IMG/VR virus record: IMGVR_UViG_3300045256_000094
DNA from: a virus
DNA: 13,975 nucleotides
Direction: 5' to 3' (one strand)
Both the position numbers and the translations under genes were made by a program. This document shows, in pieces, positions 1 to 13,382 of this stretch (within the stretch, counting starts at the first letter, position 1; the number at the start of each line of letters is the position of its first letter). The notes under the pieces are model-generated. The model saw nothing but the letters and a program-made list of their open reading frames with translations, was not told the origin of the DNA and searched no databases.

Positions 1-832
1 CCAGGAACGGCCGCATCTTCTCCCAGGTCTTCTTGACCCCGGCGAGCGGCGGGTCTTCCTCAATCGGGGTGGCGGTGAAATAGCCTTTGAAGAAGTTCTC
101 AACGCTGTTGCCCTTCGTGTCGCCGAAGAACCAGGAGTTCAGGTGGCTCGGCACGTTCAGGGCAAGAATCTTTTCCTCAGCGTCCTGGTAACTGTACCGC
201 CCCTTGTAGCTGGCCTTGATGATCTGCTCGGCGTTGGTGATCGGCGACGTGCCGTTGTCGAACCCGTAGGTTAAGTCCGGGTTGACGTGGACGCCCAGGA
301 TTTGCTTCGCCATCAGGTAGGTGGTGAGGACTGCGGCCCGCCTACCCTCGATCTCGAACTCGACGTAGAAGTTGCCCGAGCCTCGCCCGTCCCCGGCGTG
401 CCAAAGCAGGTCGCCGCAGTACGGCAACATGCCGCAACCGACGACGTTCTTCGCCATCGCCTCGATCTTACCGAACCGGAAGTCCTTCCGGTCGTAGTTG
501 TTAAAGTCGTTGGCGCACTTCATGAACACGACGACCGGGGCGGCGAATAACTCCTGCTCCGTCGGCTTGTTCATCCGGTGCGTGTAGTTGTAGTCGTAGT
601 AGTTGGGCGAGTACCAACTGTTCGAGCGAGAGTGGATGGCGTCGTTCTTGTTGCGAACGAAGTGCCGCACGGACACCTTGATCCGCTTATCGTATTCGGT
701 CTTAAAGAACTTGTCTAAGTCCGTCGTGCCGAAGAGGTTGGCGATGGTGACGGGCTGGGCTTCGTAGAACTGGTGATTCTCGATGTTATTGATGGTCAGT
801 TCTTCGAACGTTGCAATCCTTTGTGTGGTCAT
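1..832 (-). CDS. hypothetical protein; first 277 codons only, because the gene runs off the left edge (absent from the supplied ORF track)
   Basis: Hand translation of the minus strand from ATG 832..830 (MTTQRIATFEELTINNIENHQFYEAQPVTIANLF...GVKKTWEKMRPFL) stays open down to position 2. A GGAG lies 6 nt upstream of the ATG. Codons end mostly in G/C, like the neighbouring genes. No family recognised. Confidence 0.7.
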   Translation of the reverse strand, partial: MTTQRIATFEELTINNIENHQFYEAQPVTIANLFGTTDLDKFFKTEYDKRIKVSVRHFVRNKNDAIHSRSNSWYSPNYYDYNYTHRMNKPTEQELFAAPVVVFMKCANDFNNYDRKDFRFGKIEAMAKNVVGCGMLPYCGDLLWHAGDGRGSGNFYVEFEIEGRRAAVLTTYLMAKQILGVHVNPDLTYGFDNGTSPITNAEQIIKASYKGRYSYQDAEEKILALNVPSHLNSWFFGDTKGNSVENFFKGYFTATPIEEDPPLAGVKKTWEKMRPFL

Positions 833-865
833 AGTATTCTCCGTTGTCGTTCATGACATCGGGAG

Positions 866-874
866 ATTCTATCA
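866..874 (-). promoter_or_regulatory. putative extended -10 promoter (TGATAGAAT) for the 1..832 gene
   Basis: The minus strand reads TGATAGAAT, with 33 nt between the motif and ATG 832. The TGnTAGAAT form recurs at 4507..4515 and (as TGCTAGATT) at 3229..3237. The -35 position reads only TTCCCC. Confidence 0.35.
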
Positions 875-910
875 AAAACTTGAGGCCGGGGGAAGTTTAA
901 TCCCCCGGCC
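873..910 (-). terminator. putative intrinsic terminator after the 937..1665 gene
   Basis: A 10-bp GC-rich stem (884..893 ggccggggga pairs with 901..910 tcccccggcc) has a 7-nt loop. On the minus strand it is followed by TCAAGTTTTTG, so the U-tract is displaced about 5 nt from the stem, which weakens the call. Confidence 0.55.
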
Positions 911-936
911 CCTCGTTGTTTAACTTCACCAGCCGG

Positions 937-1665
937 TCAGATCATGCTGACCTGGAACGGCTCGATGGTCCGCCCCCGGTAGAAGGTGAAGTATTTGTTC
1001 TCGTCGTTCATCTCGATGTCGAGGAACTGTTCGAACTCCTGCTTGGTACGGTCGTCGGTGGTCAGGCGGGAGAAGTCCCAATACCAGACCTGCCGGTGCG
1101 TCAGTTCGTTCTCCGTGACCTTGCCGTCCCCGTTCTCGTCCCGCATGGACGTGACCGTGGCCCCGTAGGCGTCTTTGGCGTCGTTCTTCCGCCAGAACTT
1201 CCACGGCTCGGGAAGCTTGTTGCCGTCGTCGTCCTCGTTGATCCAGAACTCGCCGGACGGGTCGCCCAGAATCTTCTCGTGGAAGTGCTGGTCGTACTCC
1301 ATCTCGTAGTAGAGCTTGTACATGCGGAACTCGAACCCGCCCTCCACGTCGTCGTTCGGGATCGCCCGTAGCCGAAGCCGGAGGGGCTTGGACGAGCCGA
1401 GCAGGACGCCCCGCAGGCAGTAGTCGGTGGAGAAGAACTTCTTCCGGCCGACTTCCGTCTGGTAGACCTCGATCTTGTCCACGAAGAAGTTGATCCCGCT
1501 GAACTCCAGGTCGCTGCTGATCGAGACGCTGACCCCGATCTTAGCCTTCAGCGGGTTGTGGTACTCGAACTCCGTCGGGCCGATGACCCGCTTGTTCTTC
1601 CCCGTGAGAATCTGCCACAGCGTCCGACCCTTGCCGTCCGCACTGACCACTTTCCCTTCGGCCAT
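937..1665 (-). CDS. hypothetical protein (242 aa) with one canonical EF-hand-type calcium-binding loop
   Basis: Start trimmed to ATG 1665 (MAEGKVVSADGKG...), which is preceded by AAGGAG with a 6-nt spacer. Codons end strongly in G/C from this ATG onward. The loop DENGDGKVTENE is at 1105..1140. The longer track ORF (to 1791) adds an Arg/Thr/Pro-rich N-extension with no ribosome-binding site. Confidence 0.8.
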   Translation of the reverse strand: MAEGKVVSADGKGRTLWQILTGKNKRVIGPTEFEYHNPLKAKIGVSVSISSDLEFSGINFFVDKIEVYQTEVGRKKFFSTDYCLRGVLLGSSKPLRLRLRAIPNDDVEGGFEFRMYKLYYEMEYDQHFHEKILGDPSGEFWINEDDDGNKLPEPWKFWRKNDAKDAYGATVTSMRDENGDGKVTENELTHRQVWYWDFSRLTTDDRTKQEFEQFLDIEMNDENKYFTFYRGRTIEPFQVSMI

Positions 1666-2044
1666 TTTCGTCTCCTTCACTGAGTATGAGTCGCTTGAGC
1701 CAGTTGGTGTGCTTACCCCAGGATTTCCACACGCCTTTGGGATCACGGGTGTGCTTCGGCCGGTAAGCAAAGCCGTCGTTCCACGTCGCACAGACGATGA
1801 TCCCTGTTTGCTCCCGGAACCACTGCTCGAAGAGAGTTATCAGCAGTCCCGGCTTCCCAACACGGTATTCGTTGAACCCGGCCTCGTCTTGCAGCACATC
1901 CTCCGGTTCCCGAAGAAAGGGTGGTTGTGGGATGGCGTCTTCGTATTCGGCCCGGCGAGCGTAGTAGTTACTCAGACACTCGACCGTGACCAGATACTCG
2001 ACCCCATCAATCACCCTCGCTTCGGGAACCGGAGAAGGCGTCAT
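1541..2044 (-). CDS. hypothetical protein (167 aa); its 3' end overlaps the next gene by 125 nt
   Basis: ATG 2044 is preceded by GGGAG (5-nt spacer) and lies 1 nt after the stop of the upstream gene. The N-terminal two thirds have G/C-ending codons. The last ~41 codons lie out of frame inside the 937..1665 gene. Confidence 0.65.
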   Translation of the reverse strand: MTPSPVPEARVIDGVEYLVTVECLSNYYARRAEYEDAIPQPPFLREPEDVLQDEAGFNEYRVGKPGLLITLFEQWFREQTGIIVCATWNDGFAYRPKHTRDPKGVWKSWGKHTNWLKRLILSEGDENGRRESGQCGRQGSDAVADSHGEEQAGHRPDGVRVPQPAEG

Positions 2045-2045
2045 G

Positions 2046-3197
2046 TTAGCTCCCGATGCGTTTGACGAAGATCACGTTGAACAGGAAGATCGCCCCGATG
2101 ATAACAACGACCCCGAGGCAAATCCAGCCCAAGATGCTCCACGCCACGCCACCACCGCCGCTCCCGGTCGCCGGGCCGGACGTGTGGACGACCCGCACGT
2201 TCGGATTGTACACAGACTCGATGTAGTCCTGGTCGTACATCAGGGTCGGGTTGTCGTTGAACTCCGGGTCAACGTAGCCGGGGTTCCGGGCGTAGTTCTG
2301 CCGCTCCAGGGCGGCGATCCGGGCACGCACTTCGCCGTCTTGCAGCCCCCGCTCGTAGGCCGCTTGGTCAATGTTGTAGCGGTTGTGGTAGAACCAGTAC
2401 GCCCGCCGCTCCGCACTCCACTCCATCATCATGTACCAGAACGGGCTGCTGTACCCGCCACCGACGAAGATCACCGGCTGACTCTGGTAGTAGCTGTACG
2501 GGTGGCTGTAGTGGTAGTGGTGAACGTGCTTCACCGTGTAGTTGTACCGAACCTCCGGGTCCAGATCACGGCTCGGCCGGTTGCGAATCGTCTCGACGGA
2601 CGGAGCCTTCGGGTCAATCTTCACTTCCTTACCGTCCGGTGCCTTGTAGCTCGGCCGGGGCGGTGCCGTGGCCTTCGCCGTCTCCTCGTAGGTCCGCTTG
2701 CTGGCCTCTTCCCGGTTGGCCCGAGCCTTCTCGTCGTTGCTGTTCGTACCGGGCCGCTTGCTGCTGCCCGGAGGCGAAGACGGCGGCGGCGCACCCGCAC
2801 TCGGCGAACCGAACTTGCCCTTGTTGTCGTCCTTCTTGTCATCCGGCTTCTTGCTGTCGCCGCCACCACTGTTCGGCGAACCGAACTTGCCGCCACTCGG
2901 AGGCGGGGTCGTGGGTTGCTTCGGCGGATCGGCGGGCTTCTTACTGTCGCCCCCGCTGTTCGGCGAGCCGAACTTGCCGCCACTCGGAGGCGGGGTCGTG
3001 GGTTGCTTCGGCGGGTCAGGCTTCTGGCTGCTGCTACTGCCCGGCGAGCCGAACTTGCTACCGCTACCGCCGCTGCTGGCCGGAGGCGGTGAGCTTTGCC
3101 CGCCCGGCTTTTTGCTTCCGCTCTGGGCATCGGCGTAGCCGCCCAGCATCGCCATGCAGCCCATCAGGGCGATGCACAGTCCGATCCGTCGTAACAT
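2046..3197 (-). CDS. envelope protein (383 aa): signal peptide, Pro/Gly/Ser/Lys-rich tandem repeats, Tyr/His/Trp-rich domain, C-terminal TM anchor
   Basis: ATG 3197 is preceded by GGAGG with a 6-nt spacer. The N-terminus MLRRIGLCIALMGCMAMLGGYADA-QSG looks like a Sec signal peptide. There are four KFGSP-anchored repeats. The C-terminus WSILGWICLGVVVIIGAIFLFNVIF-VKRIGS is a hydrophobic helix. Confidence 0.85.
   Translation of the reverse strand: MLRRIGLCIALMGCMAMLGGYADAQSGSKKPGGQSSPPPASSGGSGSKFGSPGSSSSQKPDPPKQPTTPPPSGGKFGSPNSGGDSKKPADPPKQPTTPPPSGGKFGSPNSGGGDSKKPDDKKDDNKGKFGSPSAGAPPPSSPPGSSKRPGTNSNDEKARANREEASKRTYEETAKATAPPRPSYKAPDGKEVKIDPKAPSVETIRNRPSRDLDPEVRYNYTVKHVHHYHYSHPYSYYQSQPVIFVGGGYSSPFWYMMMEWSAERRAYWFYHNRYNIDQAAYERGLQDGEVRARIAALERQNYARNPGYVDPEFNDNPTLMYDQDYIESVYNPNVRVVHTSGPATGSGGGGVAWSILGWICLGVVVIIGAIFLFNVIFVKRIGS
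2802..3056 (-). repeat. in-frame coding tandem repeat with an 87-nt (29-aa) unit
   Basis: 2869..2927 and 2956..3014 are identical except for 1 mismatch in 59 nt, at an offset of 87 nt. At protein level the unit is KFGSPNSGGDSKKPADPPKQPTTPPPSGG, with diverged flanking copies. KFGSP occurs at residues 48, 75, 104 and 128. Confidence 0.9.
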
Positions 3198-3228
3198 GTG
3201 TTACCTCCGTTGTTGGTCATCACTTCTT

Positions 3229-3237
3229 AATCTAGCA
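3229..3237 (-). promoter_or_regulatory. putative extended -10 promoter (TGCTAGATT) for the 2046..3197 gene
   Basis: The minus strand reads TGCTAGATT, with 31 nt between the motif and ATG 3197. It forms one arm of the 8-bp inverted repeat 3229..3236 / 3253..3260. No aligned -35 element. Confidence 0.35.
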
Positions 3238-3253
3238 AGACGGAACAGTCAAG

Positions 3254-4480
3254 CTAGATTCGTTCCAAGCGAAACATGCCGAGTTTCCACATTGCATTTT
3301 GCAACGTGATAAGGGCTGTGGCGATGGCGTACTTGAACCCTCGGCGACCACCTTGAATCCGCTCCCGCTCGTAAGCCGACCCCATGAGACGGGCAAGCTC
3401 GTGACAGTAGTTCGCCAGCCCGGCCACATCCTTTGACTCGACGGCGTGTTTCCACCAGTAGGTCAGGTACGAGGACATCCCGAGTAACTTCACGTCGTCG
3501 TCGGTCAGGTCGAGCGGAGCATTCGGCGTATCGGTCATGCCGTGGCAAGCCGACTGCACACGAGTCTCGGTGTAGGTAATGTACATCCCCGGCGAGTCCA
3601 CCTTCGTCCACTTTTTGACTTCAAACTTCACGTCTGAAGACCGGCTCACGGACAACAGGTTCCAAGCCAGGACGTTCCACGCCAGCTTGCGGCGTTCGGT
3701 CGGCGACTCGATGGGCGGGTCGAACCCGTCCTCGATCATCCGCATGGCGTCGTCTGCACTGAGGGCAGTGCCCTCACGAGACTTCATCTTCTTCCCATCG
3801 TCCCCCAGGACGAGGCCCATAGGTAGATGATACCGCTCCAAGCCCAGGTTGTAAAAGTGTTCCTTCTGCTCCATGCCGGTAACGTACCACAACTCCCCCT
3901 CCACCATCTTGCGGAAGGCAAGGTCGTAGTAGGCGTAAAGCGGACTCCCGTCCGCCCGCTTTAGGATCACTGGCGTGGAGGGGTGGGCGTCGTCCCACAT
4001 CCACGGCTGCTCGTGTTCTTCGAGTAGAGGACTGCCCTCTTCCTGATACGTCCGGCGATGGCACGGCACGATGTCGTCCGGCATCAGCACGTCGTAGTAA
4101 AGCTTCGGCTTATAGCCGACGAAATTACACCACCGCTCGAAGCCGGTCAGGGCGAAGCTCTTTACACCGAGCGATGCCCCCAACAGAGCAACCGGCTGGG
4201 AATACGGCAACACTCGTGAGAGCGAGTGGGCCACGGCGAGGTTCCGCAGGTGCCCGACGTGGAGAGCCTTGTTCAAATTTGGACTGAAACCGTCGATCAG
4301 CATCCCCGCACCGGGGTTGGTCGGTGCGGCCTCGGGCCACCGATAGTTTTCCGCAGTGAAGTGGTAGTTGTGGAACCACTTCTGAGGATCGTGGCGGTAG
4401 CCCTTCGCACCCTCAAGCGGCTGGTTCGTGGTCACGCCGAAACCGTGCTTCGTCGGCATCGGGCGTAGCTTCGACTCCAT
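3254..4480 (-). CDS. arginyl-tRNA synthetase-like class I aaRS paralog (408 aa), lacking the canonical N-terminal domain
   Basis: ATG 4480 is preceded by AGGAG with an 8-nt spacer. The HIGH motif sits in ArgRS context (FSPNLNKALHVGHLRN). Other ArgRS-like blocks are ILKRADGSPLYAYYDLAF, LWYVTGMEQKEHF and GDDGKKMKSREGTAL (the KMSKS/MSTR position). The helical C-terminus ending LGMFRLERI resembles the DALR anticodon-binding domain. Confidence 0.85.
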   Translation of the reverse strand: MESKLRPMPTKHGFGVTTNQPLEGAKGYRHDPQKWFHNYHFTAENYRWPEAAPTNPGAGMLIDGFSPNLNKALHVGHLRNLAVAHSLSRVLPYSQPVALLGASLGVKSFALTGFERWCNFVGYKPKLYYDVLMPDDIVPCHRRTYQEEGSPLLEEHEQPWMWDDAHPSTPVILKRADGSPLYAYYDLAFRKMVEGELWYVTGMEQKEHFYNLGLERYHLPMGLVLGDDGKKMKSREGTALSADDAMRMIEDGFDPPIESPTERRKLAWNVLAWNLLSVSRSSDVKFEVKKWTKVDSPGMYITYTETRVQSACHGMTDTPNAPLDLTDDDVKLLGMSSYLTYWWKHAVESKDVAGLANYCHELARLMGSAYERERIQGGRRGFKYAIATALITLQNAMWKLGMFRLERI

Positions 4481-4506
4481 CGGCGGTTCTCCTCTCAGGT
4501 TTAGGC

Positions 4507-4535
4507 ATTCTACCAGGGAAGAAACCCTCTGTAAA
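4507..4535 (-). promoter_or_regulatory. sigma70-like promoter for the ArgRS-like gene
   Basis: Minus strand: -35 TTTACA (4530..4535), 17-nt spacer, extended -10 TGGTAGAAT (4507..4515), about 26 nt upstream of ATG 4480. The interval is locally AT-rich. Confidence 0.55.
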
Positions 4536-4538
4536 GCG

Positions 4539-4567
4539 TTGCCCAGGAAGGAGTTTTTTGTTACAAT
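4539..4567 (+). promoter_or_regulatory. sigma70-like promoter for the helicase gene
   Basis: Plus strand: -35 TTGCCC (4539..4544), 17-nt spacer, extended -10 TGTTACAAT (4559..4567). An AAGGAAG ribosome-binding site lies 8 nt before ATG 4601. Confidence 0.5.
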
Positions 4568-4600
4568 ACGCTAGATAAATAGAGCAAGGAAGCTCGCACC

Positions 4601-6076
4601 ATGACAGATGTTAAGAATGTAATCAAGATAGAGAACGTCTACAGTTGGCTAATCACGGAGAACATGGGCCTCCGGGAAACGCTTTGTAAGGCTCTCAAAG
4701 TCCCCGCCAAGAACTACTGGCATTCTACCGCATACAAACGCAAGATTTGGGACGGACACATCGAGTTCTTTAAGAAGAACTCGGGCATGTTCTACTCCGG
4801 GCTTCTCCCCGAAGTCTGCGGCATCCTCTCGCACCTTAACGAACCCTACACCATCGCCGACCACCGAGGGGCGATCCAGTGGGGGCAAAAGGTCGTTGAC
4901 GAGAACTTCCTTCAGCAGTTCCAGAAGAAGGGCAGCAAGCCGCTCACCCTCTACGACTACCAAGTGGAGTACGTCAACCTCGCCCTGAAGTACGGCCGGG
5001 GCGTCATCACCGCCCCCACGGGTGCCGGTAAGACGAACGTCCTGATCTCGATCCTGAAGTGCCTGCCGCCCAAGACGCCGGTCCTCTTCATGACGAAGGG
5101 TGCGGGTCTGGTCGATCAGAACTACGCCGAGATGCTTCAGTGGGGCGTGCCGAACCTGGGCCGCTACTACGGGAAGTACAAAGAGCCGAACTACGTCATG
5201 TGCTGCACCATCCACCAGGACACGCTCAAGAGCATCGACAAGCTCTTGCCGAAGTTCAAGGTGCTGATCGTGGACGAGGTTCACGAAGCCATGAGCGACA
5301 CGCCCATCGCCGCCTACAAGAAGATGAAGGAGGCGACGTACCGCTTCGGGTTCTCGGCCACCCCGTTCAAGTACACGTCGAAGGACAACAAGGGCAACGA
5401 GATTTCGAAAGATAAGGAACACAAGTACAACGTCAAGGCTCACTTCGGGGCCAACTTCAAGCTGTCCTGCACGCCGTCGGGCAAGCTGACGACGAAAGAC
5501 TTGCAGGAGCGGGGCATCCTGTCGCCGAGCCGCTGCACGATTTACCCGATCAACGAGCCGGACAACATCCAGCACGAGCCGTATGGGGACGCTGTTACTC
5601 TTGGCATCTCCAACAACATGTACTTCCACCAAGTCATCATGCGACTGGCCCGGAAGCTGGAGGGGCGCACCCTCATCATGGTGGAACGGATCGACCAGGG
5701 GAACTACCTCAAGTCCCTGATCCCCGAGGCACACTGGATCAAGGGCGACGTGGCGGTTGGCGACCGGGCCACGATCTTCGGCGAGTTGAAGTACAGCGGT
5801 GAGAAGGTGATCTGTATCGCTATGCGACAGATCGTCACCGCCGGTATCAACGTGTTCGTCCACAACCTGATTAACGCATCAGGCGGCAACGCCGAACACA
5901 ACATCATTCAGCAGATGGGTCGTGGGCTGCGGTCCGCCTCAGACAAGAACGTGCTGGACTTCTACGACTTCCTGTTCACCACCAACGCCTACCTGCGTGA
6001 CCACTCCCTGAACCGCATCCGGGTTCTGGAGAGCGAGGGCCACGAGATCACCGTCAAAGAGAAGATCGACTTCTAA
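4601..6076 (+). CDS. SF2 DNA helicase, UvsW-like (DEAD/DEAH-box, ResIII-type)
   Basis: Motif I is ITAPTGAGKT, motif II LIVDEVHEA, motif III FGFSATP, motif VI QQMGRGLR. The N-terminal segment KIWDGHIEFFKKNSGMFYSGLLPEV resembles the T4 UvsW N-domain (WDGRIRLL...LPFGLV), recalled from memory. Confidence 0.9.
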   Translation: MTDVKNVIKIENVYSWLITENMGLRETLCKALKVPAKNYWHSTAYKRKIWDGHIEFFKKNSGMFYSGLLPEVCGILSHLNEPYTIADHRGAIQWGQKVVDENFLQQFQKKGSKPLTLYDYQVEYVNLALKYGRGVITAPTGAGKTNVLISILKCLPPKTPVLFMTKGAGLVDQNYAEMLQWGVPNLGRYYGKYKEPNYVMCCTIHQDTLKSIDKLLPKFKVLIVDEVHEAMSDTPIAAYKKMKEATYRFGFSATPFKYTSKDNKGNEISKDKEHKYNVKAHFGANFKLSCTPSGKLTTKDLQERGILSPSRCTIYPINEPDNIQHEPYGDAVTLGISNNMYFHQVIMRLARKLEGRTLIMVERIDQGNYLKSLIPEAHWIKGDVAVGDRATIFGELKYSGEKVICIAMRQIVTAGINVFVHNLINASGGNAEHNIIQQMGRGLRSASDKNVLDFYDFLFTTNAYLRDHSLNRIRVLESEGHEITVKEKIDF

Positions 6077-6816
6077 TACCCACAACTCCAGGTCTTGCCG
6101 TTCCAGGTCAAGCCCTCGGTGTTGTGGGTTCCCGCCCGCAGCTTTTCAAGTCGCTGGCCGATGATCTCGTACCGCTTCCTGAAGTTAAACAACGCACCCT
6201 CGTCGATCCCCGGCACGAACAGGGCAGAGATGCCGCCGTAGTGGTACACCTTCTCGAACAACTGCGGGTATTCCACAACATCGTAGCCGAGCAACTGAGC
6301 GGCGAGGTACACCATCGCCCCGCCGTCGAAGTATTGCTTGAACGGGATGTTCATGTACGGTGCCCACGAGAAGTGTTGCGTAATCTTCCTGATCTTCGCC
6401 GTGTTGAACAGGGCGAACGAGTGGTCGATCTTCTTCTGCCCACGGAGCGGGTATCCGGCGAACGTACACTCGCCCGTCGTGTGCGTGTCGGCCACGCACA
6501 GGGCGTTCTCCGTCATCTTGGACATCAACTCTGGGACGATTGGGCCGAGGACTTCCACGTCGCTGTCCACCGTCAGCAGGTACTCCGTGTCCACGGCACG
6601 CATGAGCGTGTCGAGGTTGCTACCGAAGTTGCACTGCTCGGTGTTCTGGATGAAGAAGTTGGCGTGACTTGCTGCGTAAGCGTTAGCACCATCCGAACTG
6701 GCGTCGTCGATGACGACCCACTTATAGTTCGGATGGTACTTGGAGAACGACTCCCACATGAGAGCGAGAGCCGTTGCGGTGTTCCTGACGGTGGTGACTA
6801 CTGTGACATTATCCAT
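6073..6816 (-). CDS. GT-A fold glycosyltransferase (family 2-like), soluble, 247 aa
   Basis: The N-terminus VTVVTTVRNTATALALMWESFSKYHPNYKWVVIDDASSDG is a typical GT2 opening. The DxD motif is in LTVDSDVEV. No TM segments. No clear SD before ATG 6816, which lies 12 nt after the HNH stop. Confidence 0.75.
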   Translation of the reverse strand: MDNVTVVTTVRNTATALALMWESFSKYHPNYKWVVIDDASSDGANAYAASHANFFIQNTEQCNFGSNLDTLMRAVDTEYLLTVDSDVEVLGPIVPELMSKMTENALCVADTHTTGECTFAGYPLRGQKKIDHSFALFNTAKIRKITQHFSWAPYMNIPFKQYFDGGAMVYLAAQLLGYDVVEYPQLFEKVYHYGGISALFVPGIDEGALFNFRKRYEIIGQRLEKLRAGTHNTEGLTWNGKTWSCGY

Positions 6817-6828
6817 GCCATAGAGTAG

Positions 6829-7605
6829 TCACGCCACGGCGTAGTCTTCGCAGAACTTACGGTCCACCCGCCAGTAGTCGGGCATGAACTTCGGCTTCAT
6901 CGTGTCGAGGAAGTGCTGCCTCCAGAACTTAGCGAACTCGTCGAAGTCCTTCACCTGGGCCATCACCTGCGCACCGAACCCCTGCCCCGAAGACGGAGGC
7001 TTGGGCTTCAGCTTCGCCAGTTCTTTGATCTCGGCGTCCGTTGGGACGTGCCCCAGGGCTTCCTGCAACAACAGCTTCATCACCACGATCCGGCCCGGCG
7101 GAATCTTGTCGCCGTGTTCCGTCAGTGAACGGGCCAGCCCCCGGACGTACATCTCGTCCCGGAAGTTCTCCTTCATCCCCGAAAGCGGGATGCCATACAA
7201 CTCCGAGAAGTGCTTCCGCTTCTTCTGCGACTCCTCTTCGTACTTGGTGTGGCACGAGGTACAGGTCGGCAGAACGTCGTGGCTGTTGTGCTTCTTGTGT
7301 GAGTTCGGCATGTGCCGCAGGAACGACCACGGCACGACATGGTGCCGGTTCAGGTCTTCCGTGGCCCCGCAGACGACGCAGTGGTTCGGCTTGGGCAACA
7401 GCGTCCAGGGGTCTTTCATCCCCCGACGGCCGCTCGGCTCGAACTTCAGCTTGATGGTGATCGGGTCGTCGGCCACCTTGTCGGCCAGCCCACGCTCCAA
7501 ATACCAGTCGATCCGCTTCTTCTCGCACCGGCCGGTAGGTTGGCCGTCCGGTGCGAGGATCAAGCAGTTGTCAAACAGAACTTGAGTGGCTGCGTTGTTT
7601 GGCAT
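6829..7605 (-). CDS. HNH-motif nuclease (258 aa) with extra N- and C-terminal regions
   Basis: CVVCGATEDLNRHHVVPWSFL...HNSHDVLPTCTSCHTKYE fits the CxxC...HH...N...CxxCH pattern of an HNH / His-Me finger. Confidence 0.75.
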   Translation of the reverse strand: MPNNAATQVLFDNCLILAPDGQPTGRCEKKRIDWYLERGLADKVADDPITIKLKFEPSGRRGMKDPWTLLPKPNHCVVCGATEDLNRHHVVPWSFLRHMPNSHKKHNSHDVLPTCTSCHTKYEEESQKKRKHFSELYGIPLSGMKENFRDEMYVRGLARSLTEHGDKIPPGRIVVMKLLLQEALGHVPTDAEIKELAKLKPKPPSSGQGFGAQVMAQVKDFDEFAKFWRQHFLDTMKPKFMPDYWRVDRKFCEDYAVA

Positions 7606-9968: not shown

Positions 9969-10324
9969 TTCTTCTCCTCGTTGTTCGCTTTCACTTGCTC
10001 GTAGCGGATGTCCACCCTGATCCGTTGGTAGATGGACATGTAGAGAACGGCCGAGGCCCAGGTTACGCCGTGGGCCAGCACATACCCCCGCCAGTCATCA
10101 TACCACACCTGATGGCGGAATACGAGCATCATCAGGAGCGTGAACCAGAACGAGAAGCAGTATTCGCAGGTCGGGATGTAGCACACCTTCCGTACCAAAT
10201 ACGGGAGGGTGTGATCCTTGCACCACGGCTGGAAGTAGTTCTTCCGCAGGTCGCTGAAGACTTCTTCCTTCGTGGCAGCCCACGAGAACACCGCCACCAT
10301 CGCCCCGATGATGATCGCTTCCAT
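9965..10324 (-). CDS. three-TM membrane protein (119 aa), possibly DUF1360-like
   Basis: Start trimmed to ATG 10324 (MEAIIIGAMVAVFSW...), which overlaps the Pnkp-like stop (TAATG). The Cys-bearing TM segment IPTCEYCFSFWFTLLMMLVF recalls the C-x-W-C-x-S-x-W helix of DUF1360; this is from memory and unverified. Confidence 0.65.
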   Translation of the reverse strand: MEAIIIGAMVAVFSWAATKEEVFSDLRKNYFQPWCKDHTLPYLVRKVCYIPTCEYCFSFWFTLLMMLVFRHQVWYDDWRGYVLAHGVTWASAVLYMSIYQRIRVDIRYEQVKANNEEKK

Positions 10325-11271
10325 TAGTTGAAGAACTCCTCGGTGTGCATGTACTTGAACCCGCACCGGGCAGCAGCCGTCTCGTCCGTCTTCTGGTCCC
10401 CGACGAACAAGCACTTCGCCGGGTTCAGCTTGTACGTCTCGATCATCAGTGCCCCGATACCGGGGTGCGGCTTCCGGCAGTAGCAGTTTACCGGCGGGAT
10501 GTTATGAGGACAGAAGAAAAATGGAATATCCATCCCCAGCAGGGCGTTCGTCTTCTTGAACGCCTTGATGACGTTCTCCTCGGTGCAATGCTTCTTGGCG
10601 ATCCCGCTCTGGTTCGACCAACCGAGAACGTGATCCGGCTTGAAGTCGTCGATGTACTTCTTGATCCGCTCGGCACGCCCCGGCAGCAGGACGACTTCCT
10701 CCTCGCACGTCGGGAAGTCGAACTTCGACCCGGCGGGCGTGTCCCGGAGGTTGCCGTCGTAGTCGAGGATCAGTGCGCTGTTCTTGTACTCCGGCCCCCA
10801 GACCCGCTTGAAGTCCCGCTCAACCACGCTGGAGAACCCCTCGCCGGTGCGGGGCTTTTCGAACAGCTTTCGGTAGTTGAACAACGCCACCGGCGGGAAG
10901 TGGTTCGGGTTCTTGGTCGTCTTGAAATCCTCGGGCATGAGGAGCTTGCCTGTTTGGCGGATCATCCGCAGACAGGCGTTGAGTTGTGCGTCCTCGAAGC
11001 TCGTGCTGAGCCAGACGCAGTTGACCGGGATTTTGTTATCCTTCCCGACCTTGATGACCGACGCCCGGCTCTTGGCGTCCGGGTAGGTGTTGTCGAGAAT
11101 GAAGAGATTGCCGCCCTTCTTGATCCGCCGTTCGAGTTCCTGGGCCACGCCCTCCAGCGTCCCGCCCATCTCGTCCCGGTTGAGCCGGTCATACCCCTTC
11201 GCAACGTACTCCGCTGCGATGGTGGACTTGCCCGAAGCGTTGTAACCCAGAAGGACGACAATCTCGCTCAT
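10324..11271 (-). CDS. bifunctional P-loop polynucleotide-kinase-like / HAD-IIIA phosphatase (Pnkp-like, 315 aa)
   Basis: Start trimmed to ATG 11271 (GAGG 5 nt upstream). Kinase half: GYNASGKST, LNRDE and FILDNT parallel T4 Pnk GCPGSGKST, INRDD and IISDTN. Phosphatase half: LILDYDGNL (motif I), WSNQSGI (motif II), CPH...CYCRKPHPG (Zn-loop plus motif III Lys, as in GmhB/HisB-N), FVGDQKTDETAA (motif IV). Confidence 0.85.
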   Translation of the reverse strand: MSEIVVLLGYNASGKSTIAAEYVAKGYDRLNRDEMGGTLEGVAQELERRIKKGGNLFILDNTYPDAKSRASVIKVGKDNKIPVNCVWLSTSFEDAQLNACLRMIRQTGKLLMPEDFKTTKNPNHFPPVALFNYRKLFEKPRTGEGFSSVVERDFKRVWGPEYKNSALILDYDGNLRDTPAGSKFDFPTCEEEVVLLPGRAERIKKYIDDFKPDHVLGWSNQSGIAKKHCTEENVIKAFKKTNALLGMDIPFFFCPHNIPPVNCYCRKPHPGIGALMIETYKLNPAKCLFVGDQKTDETAAARCGFKYMHTEEFFN

Positions 11272-11273
11272 GA

Positions 11274-11609
11274 CTACCTCGGTTTCACTAAGTCGTAGTG
11301 GTAAGCCCGATCCGTCTCCACACCGTCTTCGGACAGCCCGATGCCGGGTTTCGGCATCTTGTACTTGGCGTCCTTCTCGTACTTCGTCTTCGTGTTGAAG
11401 TAGAAGTGGCGTGTCTCCACGCCTTCCTGAACCTTGAAGTGGATGACGACCTTTTCGGGCATCCACCCGTTGACGACCGGGACTTTGAAGTCCAGGCCGT
11501 CAACCTTCACATACTCCACCGAGTCGATCTCGCTGTCCAGGTGGTAACTTGACTGCGGGTTTGACACCACCCCCAATGTGAGGGCCAGGGTCAAGAGCAT
11601 TCCTTGCAT
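11274..11609 (-). CDS. small secreted protein (111 aa), unknown function
   Basis: Start trimmed to ATG 11609, with AGGAG in the 11-nt gap after the ABC ATPase stop. N-terminus MQGMLLTLALTLGVVSNPQSS looks like a signal peptide. The stop lies 2 nt before the Pnkp-like ATG. Confidence 0.7.
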   Translation of the reverse strand: MQGMLLTLALTLGVVSNPQSSYHLDSEIDSVEYVKVDGLDFKVPVVNGWMPEKVVIHFKVQEGVETRHFYFNTKTKYEKDAKYKMPKPGIGLSEDGVETDRAYHYDLVKPR

Positions 11610-11620
11610 CCTTCTCCTTG

Positions 11621-12526
11621 TTAGACAACACTGACCTTCGAGTTCCAGAAGGTTCGCCCGACTTCGGGGATGATCGTCTCGTTCTGGTCGAACACGATCT
11701 TCCTCAACTCGGCCTTCTGGTCGGCGAACCGACTGAAGTCCCTCGGGTCGTCCGGGTGAAAGACCGGAGCGGGTTGATCGTACACGATTGTGGCCCCACA
11801 TTCAACTCCCCGTTCCTTCATCGTGGGGCACGTCCAGTAGCGGCTCAGCCCAACCACCCGGTCGGCGAGGTAGAACGCCTCGTTGAGTTCGTGCGTGACG
11901 AACACCACCGTGTACGGTGGCGGCAGACCCGCCTTCTTCGCCGTCAGGTTGTCCTGGTAGAGCCGCAACAGCAGGTGTTGCAGGTCTTCACGGGTCGCCT
12001 CGTCGAGCGCACCGAACGGCTCGTCGAGCAAGAGAATCTTCGGCTTCATAATCAACGCCTGGGCGATGCTCACCCGCTGACGCTGACCACCCGATAGTTG
12101 GGTTGGGTAACAGTCCATCGACCCGTCCAGATCGAAGTCCGTCAACATCTGCTTGGCTTCAGCCCGGTACTTCCGTTTCAGGTCACGCAGCATGAACGGG
12201 CGGAACACCCGGCCGAGGAAGCTCGTTTGGTCGAGGATCGGCCCGACGGCCACGTTGTCGAGGGCGGTGAGGAACGGGAACAGGGTGTACTGCTGGTACA
12301 CGATCCCGCAGTCCCGGCTCGGCCCGATAACTTCCTTCCCGTCCACCATGATCGCCCCTTCCATCGGCGGGTCGGTGCCGAGTATGGCCCGGAGCAGGGT
12401 GGACTTGCCGCAGCCGCTCGGCCCGACCAGGGCGACGAACTGCCCGGCGTCCACGTCGAGGTTGCAGTGGTGAAGCACCCGCTTCGTCTTGAACCAGTGG
12501 TTAACGTGCGTGCAACGTAACAGCAT
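11621..12526 (-). CDS. ABC transporter ATP-binding protein, NitT/TauT (nitrate/sulfonate/taurine-type) family, with a ~50-aa C-terminal extension
   Basis: Walker A is GPSGCGKST, the Q-loop is in IVYQQYTLFP, the signature is LSGGQRQRVSIAQAL, Walker B is ILLLDEPFGALD, and the H-loop is VVFVTHE. AGGAGAAG lies upstream of ATG 12526. Confidence 0.9.
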   Translation of the reverse strand: MLLRCTHVNHWFKTKRVLHHCNLDVDAGQFVALVGPSGCGKSTLLRAILGTDPPMEGAIMVDGKEVIGPSRDCGIVYQQYTLFPFLTALDNVAVGPILDQTSFLGRVFRPFMLRDLKRKYRAEAKQMLTDFDLDGSMDCYPTQLSGGQRQRVSIAQALIMKPKILLLDEPFGALDEATREDLQHLLLRLYQDNLTAKKAGLPPPYTVVFVTHELNEAFYLADRVVGLSRYWTCPTMKERGVECGATIVYDQPAPVFHPDDPRDFSRFADQKAELRKIVFDQNETIIPEVGRTFWNSKVSVV

Positions 12527-12554
12527 CTTGCTTCTCCTGTGGTTTGGCGTTGAG

Positions 12555-13382
12555 TTACTTCCCGTTCTCGAACCACGGAGACACCTTGTCCCGCAGCTTC
12601 AGCAGCGACCAGTCGAGGACGTACCCCAGCAGGCCGAGGACGATGATGTAGTTGTACACAATGTTCATGTGGCTCATGCGGCTCTCGATCCGTAGCCGGT
12701 AGCCGATGCCCACGTTCGCACTCGCCCACTCGGCTGCGATTAGGAACACCATCGCCGGACCGACGGCCAGTCGCACCGACTCCACCACCCGTGGGAAGAT
12801 CATCCGCAGGATGACGTTCCACACTACCTCGAAGTTGCTGGCACCCAGCGTGTACGCCTTGTTCACCAACTCGTCCGGCACGTCGTACTTGGCGCTCTGG
12901 TACACGGTCATGGTCAGAGCCGGGATGATGCCGAAGGCGATCATCATCACGAACATCTTGAACTCAGTGCCGAACAGGATGAAGAACACGGCGAGCATGG
13001 CCGTCGGCGGGATTTTCGAGAAGAAACTGAGGACGGGATGGAACAGTGCCTCGATCTGGGCGAAGCACGCCATCAGTAAACCCACCAGCAGCGAGAAGGC
13101 GATACCAAGTGCCATCCCCGCCGTGTAGCGGTAGCCCGTGGCCTGCACGTCCTCCCAGAGCGGGATCGTGTGGGGCGGTGACTTGCTGGGGCTGGTGATC
13201 TCCAGCAGTCCCTTGTAGATGTCCACGACGCCCGGCATCGTGGTGTCCTTCGGGTTCTGCTCGTGCTGTCGGATCGACAGGAACTCGTAGAAGGCAAACA
13301 AGACCAGCACCGACACGATCCCGAGGACTACTTGGGTCGTCTTGGAGATGGGCTTGCGAATGACTAACTTTTTGGGTCGCAT
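12555..13382 (-). CDS. ABC transporter permease, NitT/TauT family (275 aa)
   Basis: Multi-TM protein with the EAA-loop region KAYTLGASNFEVVWNVILRMIFPRVVESVRLAVGPAMVFLIAAE, typical of SsuC/TauC/NrtB-type permeases. GGAGG lies 6 nt before ATG 13382. Confidence 0.88.
   Translation of the reverse strand: MRPKKLVIRKPISKTTQVVLGIVSVLVLFAFYEFLSIRQHEQNPKDTTMPGVVDIYKGLLEITSPSKSPPHTIPLWEDVQATGYRYTAGMALGIAFSLLVGLLMACFAQIEALFHPVLSFFSKIPPTAMLAVFFILFGTEFKMFVMMIAFGIIPALTMTVYQSAKYDVPDELVNKAYTLGASNFEVVWNVILRMIFPRVVESVRLAVGPAMVFLIAAEWASANVGIGYRLRIESRMSHMNIVYNYIIVLGLLGYVLDWSLLKLRDKVSPWFENGK

Follow-up and report, generated by a model that had tools for sequence, protein, structure and literature searches.

A probable compact arginyl-tRNA synthetase on a viral contig

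The window analysed here, a 13,975-nucleotide stretch of viral DNA (IMG/VR record IMGVR_UViG_3300045256_000094), carries a gene that probably encodes a functional miniaturised arginyl-tRNA synthetase (ArgRS) of a very large bacteriophage, supplementing Arg-tRNA charging during infection. The open reading frame (ORF) occupies positions 3254-4480 of the minus strand, with its ATG at 4480, and specifies 408 amino acids (aa) plus a stop codon. The protein has the ArgRS fold, a complete ATP site (HVGH, KMKSR), a complete arginine pocket and a C-terminal anticodon-binding domain. An earlier note, made from the letters of the window, had proposed a minimised ArgRS on the basis of three motifs and a DALR-like C-terminal domain. 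The three motifs are all present, at A72-LHVGHLRN-80 (HIGH corresponding to H74-H77), A176-DGSPLYAYYD-186 and K231-MKSREG-237. The HIGH signature in its ArgRS context (SxPNxxKxxHxGHxR) is found as F65-SPNLNKALHVGHLR-79 and this motif is invariant across the family described below.

These motifs are not a chance occurrence, since Pfam, profile matches to the PDB and a global alignment all point to ArgRS. The protein passes the Pfam profile tRNA-synt_1d (PF00750) with 32.4 bits for a cut-off of 23.3. A profile built from 60 family members retrieves exclusively ArgRS chains from the PDB (best E 5.8e-22), and a global profile-profile alignment to 24 canonical ArgRS covers the whole protein (E 2.9e-64). 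The AlphaFold2 (AF2) model obtained from the family alignment has a predicted local distance difference test (pLDDT) score of 94.1 and a predicted template modelling (pTM) score of 0.92. A Foldseek search of the PDB with this model gives ArgRS for 20 of the 20 top matches. The closest structural match in BFVD is a 385-aa 'Arginine--tRNA ligase [uncultured marine phage]' (TM-score 0.75, normalised by target length). The DALR-like C-terminal domain announced in the earlier note is supported by hhalign and by the AF2 model, while the Pfam DALR_1 profile remains under its cut-off in the query (17.9 bits, E 0.0033, cut-off 22.3); it is recorded in many homologues.

Parts kept and lost relative to E. 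coli ArgRS

E. coli ArgRS is composed of Add1 (residues 1-112), a catalytic domain (113-382) that includes Ins1 (164-221) and Ins2 (258-311), and Add2 (383-577). Its arginine pocket involves D118, N123, H132, Y313, D317 and Q341, with R324 bracing D118, and Ins1 is partly disordered in structure 4OBY (PMC3956977). The residue map of the compact protein was obtained from MAFFT E-INS-i and global hhalign alignments to E. coli argS, which are in agreement; a first hhalign run against the single E. coli sequence had aligned the C-terminal half only.

R324 apart, the pocket residues listed above all have an aligned counterpart. Residues 63-77 (4250..4294, minus strand as for all segments of the protein) contain the Arg-binding Asp/Asn loop and HIGH, D63-GFSPN68-LNKAL-H74VGH77, in which D63 corresponds to E. 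coli D118, N68 to N123 and H74-H77 to H129-H132. Residues 176-208 (3857..3955), with ADG-SPL-Y182-AYY-D186 and E204-Q205-KE-H208, align with positions at which the guanidinium group and the main chain of arginine are bound: Y182 corresponds to Y313, D186 to D317 and Q205 to Q341. K230-KMKSR-235 aligns with K378-PFKTR-383, so that K231-M-K-S-R235 (3776..3790) is the equivalent of the KMSKS loop (KFKTR in E. coli). The Add2/DALR helical domain (residues 236-408, 3257..3775) aligns by hhalign with E. coli 383-577, through to the very last ArgRS residue. It forms a helical bundle from 242 to 399 in the AF2 model and carries a conserved block, G298-x-Y300-xx-Y303-T304-xx-R307.

With 408 aa against 577, the protein falls 169 residues short of E. 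coli ArgRS. The missing residues are distributed between the N-terminus (about 55), the segment G101-D177 (about 72, Ins1), the second half of the Rossmann fold (about 17) and Add2 (about 21); the few remaining ones fall between HIGH and G101. The shortening between HIGH and the ADG block noticed earlier is real (102 residues vs 178 in E. coli) and the deleted part is specifically Ins1: E. coli residues from about 168 to 230 are unmatched in both alignments, the junction lying at residues 105-116 (4133..4168). Ins1 is usual in ArgRS and is not known to take part in catalysis. The profile alignment, one of the checks that the earlier note had called for, maps two major reductions: Ins1 is gone and Add1 is reduced to about 60 residues.

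A conserved family of compact proteins

A word-indexed search yielded 439 clusters; nearly all of the best 120 have lengths of 384-460 aa and share 41-78% identity with the query. An exhaustive hidden Markov model (HMM) search of 1.84 billion representatives gave 119 clusters (50% identity) at E 1e-30 or better. Compact proteins (about 380-470 aa) and fragments fill the ranks of this second search to about 1e-38; canonical-length ArgRS (535-630 aa) enter after this value and dominate beyond about 1e-30. Gene models from 54 loci range from 364 to 471 aa, except for two truncated entries, and HIGH is usually located at residue 70-100. Two tiers can be distinguished: the query's own subfamily, at least 35% identical to the query, and a distant subfamily (22-33%). 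A few members are longer, such as P0146 (1077 aa), in which the synthetase is fused behind a 684-residue N-terminal region; no extra Pfam domain was found in the longer members (P0146, P0154 and others). The term "paralog" used in the earlier note is misleading: the gene is a member of a large phage-specific family and not a duplicate within a cellular genome.

Conservation was evaluated on 50 sequences from both tiers, with identities of 22-51%. Catalytic or Arg-binding positions that are invariant in all 50 include D63, P67, N68, N70, K71, H74, G76, H77, G101, Y182, D186, Y199, E204, Q205, H208, H218, G222 and K231. The same is true of N269, G298, Y300 and Y303 in the tRNA-contact region, and the position of S234 is occupied by S or T in 49 of the 50 sequences. 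Loss of the Arg- and ATP-binding residues, which the earlier note had considered as the mark of a dead relic, is thus not observed: all are kept. The invariance of catalytic, Arg-binding and tRNA-contact positions across both tiers argues strongly against a relic and, as judged from these alignments, the family is under purifying selection.

The same positions bear on the idea that the protein is a catalytically weak or inactive tRNA-Arg binder which sequesters, protects or delivers tRNA-Arg, for example against host anticodon nucleases. The loss of Ins1 and of most of Add1 could cripple catalysis, which is tRNA-dependent in ArgRS (PMC3956977), and the phage lineage has genes of the tRNA-repair type in the vicinity, namely a kinase/phosphatase gene (10324-11466) and, in the related contig L001, one for an RNA ligase. 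However, invariance of HIGH, of the KMSKS-equivalent Lys and of the Arg pocket at 22-51% identity would be unexpected for a mere binder, and we regard this explanation as very improbable.

The N-terminal region

The earlier note had described about 70 residues unrelated to ArgRS before HIGH. This is not quite so: residues 37-73 match the ArgRS linker and first Rossmann strand (phmmer) and residues 1-40 are probably what remains of Add1. Taken together, the N-terminal 60 or so residues (residues 1-60, 4301..4480) probably represent a shrunken Add1 rather than unrelated sequence, forming a small beta module with a putative function in binding the tRNA D-loop and nucleotide A20. According to the account of Stephen et al. 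(2018) given in PMC8975779, E. coli ArgRS holds A20 with F36, Q40, A78, F82 and N84. In both full-length alignments, F36-x-N38 of the query falls on E. coli F82-x-N84 and F14-G15 on F36-G37. Across both tiers, 49 of the 50 sequences have Y or F at position 36, and 48 have N at position 38. The AF2 model shows short strands at 15-18, 29-32 and 37-40 and no helix before residue 75.

Viral setting and distribution

The exact protein is labelled 'arginyl-tRNA synthetase' by JGI and is located on a 169-kb contig. Members of the family were identified at 46 loci of IMG/VR, on contigs of up to 676 kb; the best match in scans of IMG/VR and of JGI metagenomes is 47% identical. INPHARED contains three weak matches (24-26% identity) in unannotated records. 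Only 8 matches were obtained among 185,579 bacterial and archaeal genomes of GTDB, each representing one species, all in metagenome-assembled genomes (MAGs) from unrelated phyla and none in an isolate. Family contigs of 345-693 kb carry tRNAs, other short genes resembling aminoacyl-tRNA synthetases (aaRS), ribosome recycling factor, a gp32-like protein and RNA ligase. The IMG/VR loci, the phage-like contigs, the near absence from GTDB and the marine phage match in BFVD together indicate that the family is essentially viral.

The whole window is syntenic with a 94-kb IMG/VR contig (L004) and a 693-kb ENA contig (L001), with identities of 40-58%. The shared order comprises an ABC permease and ATPase, a kinase/phosphatase, an AAA ATPase, an HNH protein, the divergent helicase, ArgRS and two genes of unknown function; it is also found in 78%-identical relatives. 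The virus-like neighbours reported earlier are confirmed by the window's helicase, which is of phage type (phrog_16, E 4.9e-59), by the HNH gene, and by genes located further downstream in the window's clade: a gp32-like single-strand-binding protein (PF08804, E 3.1e-13), an ADP-ribosylglycohydrolase and an RNA ligase. In a 346-kb NCBI contig (L002, JAANMV010000001.1), a 47%-identical homologue is accompanied by tRNAs and dozens of small ORFs of unknown function.

These data also address the proposal of a cellular origin, whether as the housekeeping argS of a bacterium or symbiont with a small genome or as a bacterial gene that mis-assembly placed on the contig. Relatives do occur in eight GTDB MAGs, some contigs reach 600-690 kb, and the window carries a pair of ABC transporter genes while virion genes are missing from it. 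But the MAGs belong to unrelated phyla, without any isolate, compared with 46 loci in IMG/VR; the syntenic contigs carry the gp32-like protein, phage-type helicase, HNH, RNA ligase, dense small ORFs and tRNAs; and the gene order of the entire window is common to the IMG/VR contig L004. A housekeeping origin, which the earlier note had named as a possible refutation, is hence extremely improbable. The compact ArgRS is best read as a virus-carried translation gene, neither a relic nor a housekeeping enzyme.

Gene neighbours are constant within a clade and different between clades. They include helicase, HNH, AAA and gp32 genes in the window's clade, other small ORFs and HNH in a second clade, and RNase H in L002. 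A multi-gene system built on ArgRS was considered and rejected, as no partner gene is conserved across clades.

Contig L002 also carries, at 564-7023, short aaRS-like ORFs of the tRNA-synt_1b (197 and 368 aa) and tRNA-synt_2b (237 aa) types together with a ribosome recycling factor. Miniaturised synthetases may be a general habit of these phages, beyond ArgRS.

Association with tRNA-Arg genes

The flanks of 115 non-redundant loci, among them 58 from the distant subfamily and 56 from the query's subfamily, were searched for tRNA genes with ARAGORN. Flanking tRNAs of any kind are present at 24 of the 58 distant loci, and in 14 of these 24 the nearest is a tRNA-Arg. Within 1.5 kb of the distant-subfamily genes, 19 tRNA-Arg and 30 other tRNAs were counted, vs 10 and 172 beyond this distance (odds ratio 10.9, Fisher p 2.8e-8; permutation p < 5e-5). 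Distances of 15-270 bp, with tRNA-Arg and ArgRS on the same strand, are frequent, an arrangement which looks like a tRNA-Arg plus ArgRS cassette. Arrays in L012, L023, L033, L046, L047 and L053 contain 2-4 tRNA-Arg isoacceptors (UCU, CCU, ACG, UCG) packed, on the same strand, into about 300 bp. GGA, the signature of A20, occurs in the D-loop of 28 of 32 tRNA-Arg genes of these phages. This is consistent with continued reading of A20 by the enzyme and gives no sign of an orthogonal pair. In the query's subfamily, 10 of 56 loci have any tRNA and tRNA-Arg is the nearest in 3 of these 10, two of them representing one contig; tRNA-Arg and other tRNAs number 3 and 12 within 1.5 kb, and 5 and 17 beyond.

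The difference between subfamilies is relevant to another explanation, that of a repurposed synthetase-like enzyme which makes Arg-AMP (arginyl-adenylate) or Arg-tRNA but whose arginyl group goes outside the translation pool. The acceptor could be a tRNA base (as for GluQRS), a small molecule (as for MshC) or phage DNA or protein modified by means of aminoacyl-tRNA. Such an enzyme would be compatible with the strong reduction of the protein (no Ins1, minimal Add1), with a score far under the cut-off of the argS equivalog profile and with the lack of significant tRNA-Arg adjacency in the query's subfamily. In the window's clade, moreover, ArgRS is probably co-transcribed with two proteins of unknown function. 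There is also a precedent, phage Mom, which modifies DNA adenine with Gly-tRNA in a non-translational use of an aminoacyl-tRNA (PMC13219725). However, known class I repurposed paralogs have lost or changed the anticodon-binding domain, which here is complete and conserved to the C-terminus. Conservation also extends to the tRNA-contact motifs specific to ArgRS and to the putative A20 motif, and members of the distant subfamily lie inside tRNA arrays, beside tRNA-Arg. No partner enzyme is conserved, neighbours being clade-dependent, and the fused family members bring no informative domain. The repurposed paralog (of the GluQRS, MshC or HisZ kind) that the earlier note had left as a second option has gained no positive support, and we consider repurposing unlikely. 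Its first option, a virus-encoded ArgRS, is favoured by the fold, the invariant Arg and ATP residues, the anticodon domain, the viral contigs and the tRNA-Arg adjacency in distant members.

Proposed role and points against it

As a working phage ArgRS, the protein would bind tRNA-Arg through the anticodon and the D-loop, the remnant beta module still forming an A20 pocket through F36 and N38, and would charge arginine like a normal ArgRS. Its substrates would be host tRNA-Arg plus, where present, phage-encoded tRNA-Arg. Host RNA polymerase would transcribe the gene, the first of three, from the conserved sigma70 promoter in front of it. The location of a unit with a host-type promoter inside a region of replication genes suggests early expression. 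The enzyme could then sustain Arg-tRNA charging for phage protein synthesis once the host supply becomes limiting or is shut down.

Several observations weigh against this role. The NCBIfam equivalog profile for argS (TIGR00456) gives 78.2 bits, and its cut-off of 261.65 is not reached. E. coli R324, which braces D118, has no aligned counterpart, its position being occupied by V193. Add1 has shrunk from about 112 to about 60 residues and its helices are gone. The N-terminus alone does not match the Add1 profile significantly (hhalign E 0.51) and phmmer places it in a different register from that of the full-length alignments. Since the alignments and the conservation favour a shrunken Add1 and this isolated comparison is not significant, we treat that assignment as a well-motivated inference. 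Bacterial aminoacylation is described as strictly requiring A20 recognition by a full Add1 (PMC8975779). The query's subfamily shows no significant adjacency to tRNA-Arg (Fisher p 1.0, permutation p 0.15), so that the link is direct for the distant subfamily and extends to the query by homology alone; no tRNA gene is found within the window. Finally, a literature search found no biochemical characterisation of any family member.

A more radical reading, which we think unlikely, is that these phage proteins of about 400 aa may be the smallest natural ArgRS, operating under changed rules (a four-stranded Add1 remnant being enough for the D-loop, or A20 and tRNA dependence having been dropped), or that the query's subfamily may supply Arg-tRNA or Arg-AMP to a reaction outside translation. 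Changed rules, if true, would imply private charging of phage tRNA-Arg, escaping host control. The non-translational variant is suggested by the query's subfamily being unlinked to tRNA-Arg genes and probably co-transcribed with a putative secreted or membrane Pro-rich protein.

Comparison with known synthetases

An extra N-terminal domain and tRNA-dependent amino-acid activation are well-known peculiarities of ArgRS. The compact protein has HIGH, the KFKTR-type loop, the arginine pocket and Add2 in common with bacterial ArgS (E. coli, 577 aa, PDB 4OBY and 5YYN; N. gonorrhoeae, 6AO8). In contrast to these, it has no Ins1 and a reduced Add1, the second half of the Rossmann fold and Add2 are shorter by about 17 and 21 residues, R324 is lost, and the gene is carried by phages, not cells. 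The family thereby shows which parts of ArgRS may be dispensable. It could provide a ready-made minimal scaffold for mechanistic work and engineering, e.g. of compact or orthogonal Arg pairs.

Huge phages (genomes >200 kb, many tRNAs) encode up to 15 synthetases, which were proposed to load amino acids of the host onto phage tRNAs and were confirmed by TIGRFAM HMMs (Al-Shayeb et al. 2020, PMC7162821). The setting is alike, as relatives of the compact ArgRS are found on such contigs, including weak matches in LR745206 and LR756504. The compact family scores far below the TIGRFAM argS cut-off, and surveys based on TIGRFAM may therefore undercount compact ArgRS. The ArgRS of giant viruses (Mimivirus, Klosneuvirus, Yasminevirus) are likewise virus-encoded and similar in fold (BFVD, E 1e-12 to 1e-17), but they belong to eukaryotic viruses, are mostly full length (619-658 aa) and share only 14-17% identity with the query (TM-score 0.46-0.50, normalised by target length). 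GluQRS/YadB and MshC, too, are truncated class I cores in which amino-acid activation has been retained. MshC, however, is related to CysRS, and GluQRS lacks an anticodon-binding domain; the compact ArgRS keeps its anticodon domain and is not of the GluQRS type.

A literature search for compact phage ArgRS found no description of this format, of the reduction of Ins1 and Add1 or of the adjacency to tRNA-Arg. Phage synthetases are thus already known, while the compact ArgRS architecture and family have not been described, although they are partly annotated automatically as ArgRS. The family is an abundant and concrete example of very large phages carrying charging capacity, with a tRNA-Arg cassette in one subfamily. 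It extends a known theme and does not overturn current understanding; it should be useful to synthetase enzymologists and phage biologists without being a surprise in kind.

Expression signals and transcription unit

The ArgRS gene appears to head a three-gene transcription unit composed of a promoter, ArgRS, a 383-aa gene, a 284-aa gene and a terminator, all on the minus strand. A Shine-Dalgarno sequence read directly from the DNA (AGGAG, 4489..4493) is located 8 nt 5' of the ATG. A consensus scan identified a sigma70-type promoter, TTTACA-17-(TGG)TAGAAT, at 4507..4535. It agrees with the consensus at 10 of 12 positions, has the additional TG and is the top-scoring site of the window, in accordance with the near-consensus promoter mentioned in the earlier note. 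The window shows no general excess of promoter-like sites (5 found vs 3.1 expected). The promoter claim has comparative support since both hexamers are invariant in the nearest three independent relatives (76-78% protein identity, L138 and L140 among the loci), while 9 of the 17 spacer positions vary (Fisher p 0.0033). In the more distant syntenic locus L004, the equivalent place is occupied by TTGACC-17-TATAAT, and L015 carries TGGTAGAAT.

The helicase gene is preceded by a divergent promoter on the plus strand, TTGCCC-17-(TGT)TACAAT (4539..4567, consensus scan), of which the -10 hexamer and TGT are invariant in relatives while the -35 hexamer keeps only TTG. The two promoters are arranged back to back, with 3 bp separating their -35 hexamers. 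Invariance of both -10 elements suggests a shared divergent control region.

The second gene (2046..3197, 383 aa) has its own Shine-Dalgarno sequence (GGAGGT) and is probably co-transcribed with ArgRS. In the window's clade it is always found directly 3' of the ArgRS gene (9 loci including the window, median gap 62 bp). Its product has a hydrophobic N-terminus, Pro/Gly/Ser-rich repeats, a His/Tyr-rich middle and a C-terminal hydrophobic helix. The repeats include three copies of a KP(A/D)DPPKQPTTPPPSGGKFGSPNSGG-like unit. The third gene (937..1791, 284 aa) is present at 10 loci, with 45-47% identity in L001 and L004. Neither protein has a Pfam or PHROG match. An intrinsic terminator hairpin (882..912) with a 12-bp stem, 10 GC pairs and a T-rich tail is located just past the third gene.

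Arginine codon usage in the ten window genes between 937 and 13382 is extremely biased: of 193 Arg codons, 107 (55%) are CGG, 7 are AGG and none is AGA. The ArgRS gene itself has no AGR codon.

Other genes of the window

No Pfam match was obtained for the other small ORFs of the window, and no Rfam family was detected within it. A gene for a glycosyltransferase of family 2 (PF00535, E 1.5e-12) is located at 6073-6816 on the minus strand, between the helicase and HNH genes. No gene is present at this place in L138, L139, L140, L001 or L004 and tblastn finds no copy in any locus. This absence from relatives makes it look like a recent insertion (moron) in this phage.

An ABC transporter ATPase and permease (11621-13382, minus strand) lie beside the replication genes, an unusual cargo for a phage. 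The pair is kept in the phage clade at 40-56% identity (L001 1369-3313; L139 1732-3473).

The gene at 10324-11466 (minus strand) encodes a fusion of a P-loop kinase (AAA_33) with a HAD/PNK-3'-phosphatase and resembles T4 polynucleotide kinase/phosphatase; its true start is likely M66 (MSEIVVLLGYNASGKST). In L001, an RNA ligase gene (listed at 20977-21281) is found about 10 kb from the kinase/phosphatase gene. The two activities suggest a tRNA-repair capacity in the phage lineage of the window.

The 258-aa HNH/DUF968-like protein encoded at 6829-7605 (minus strand) adjoins the helicase. Its homologues (33-35% identity) are also found within a few kb of ArgRS genes of the distant subfamily, at two unrelated loci (L012 6559-7308; L023 14667-15386).

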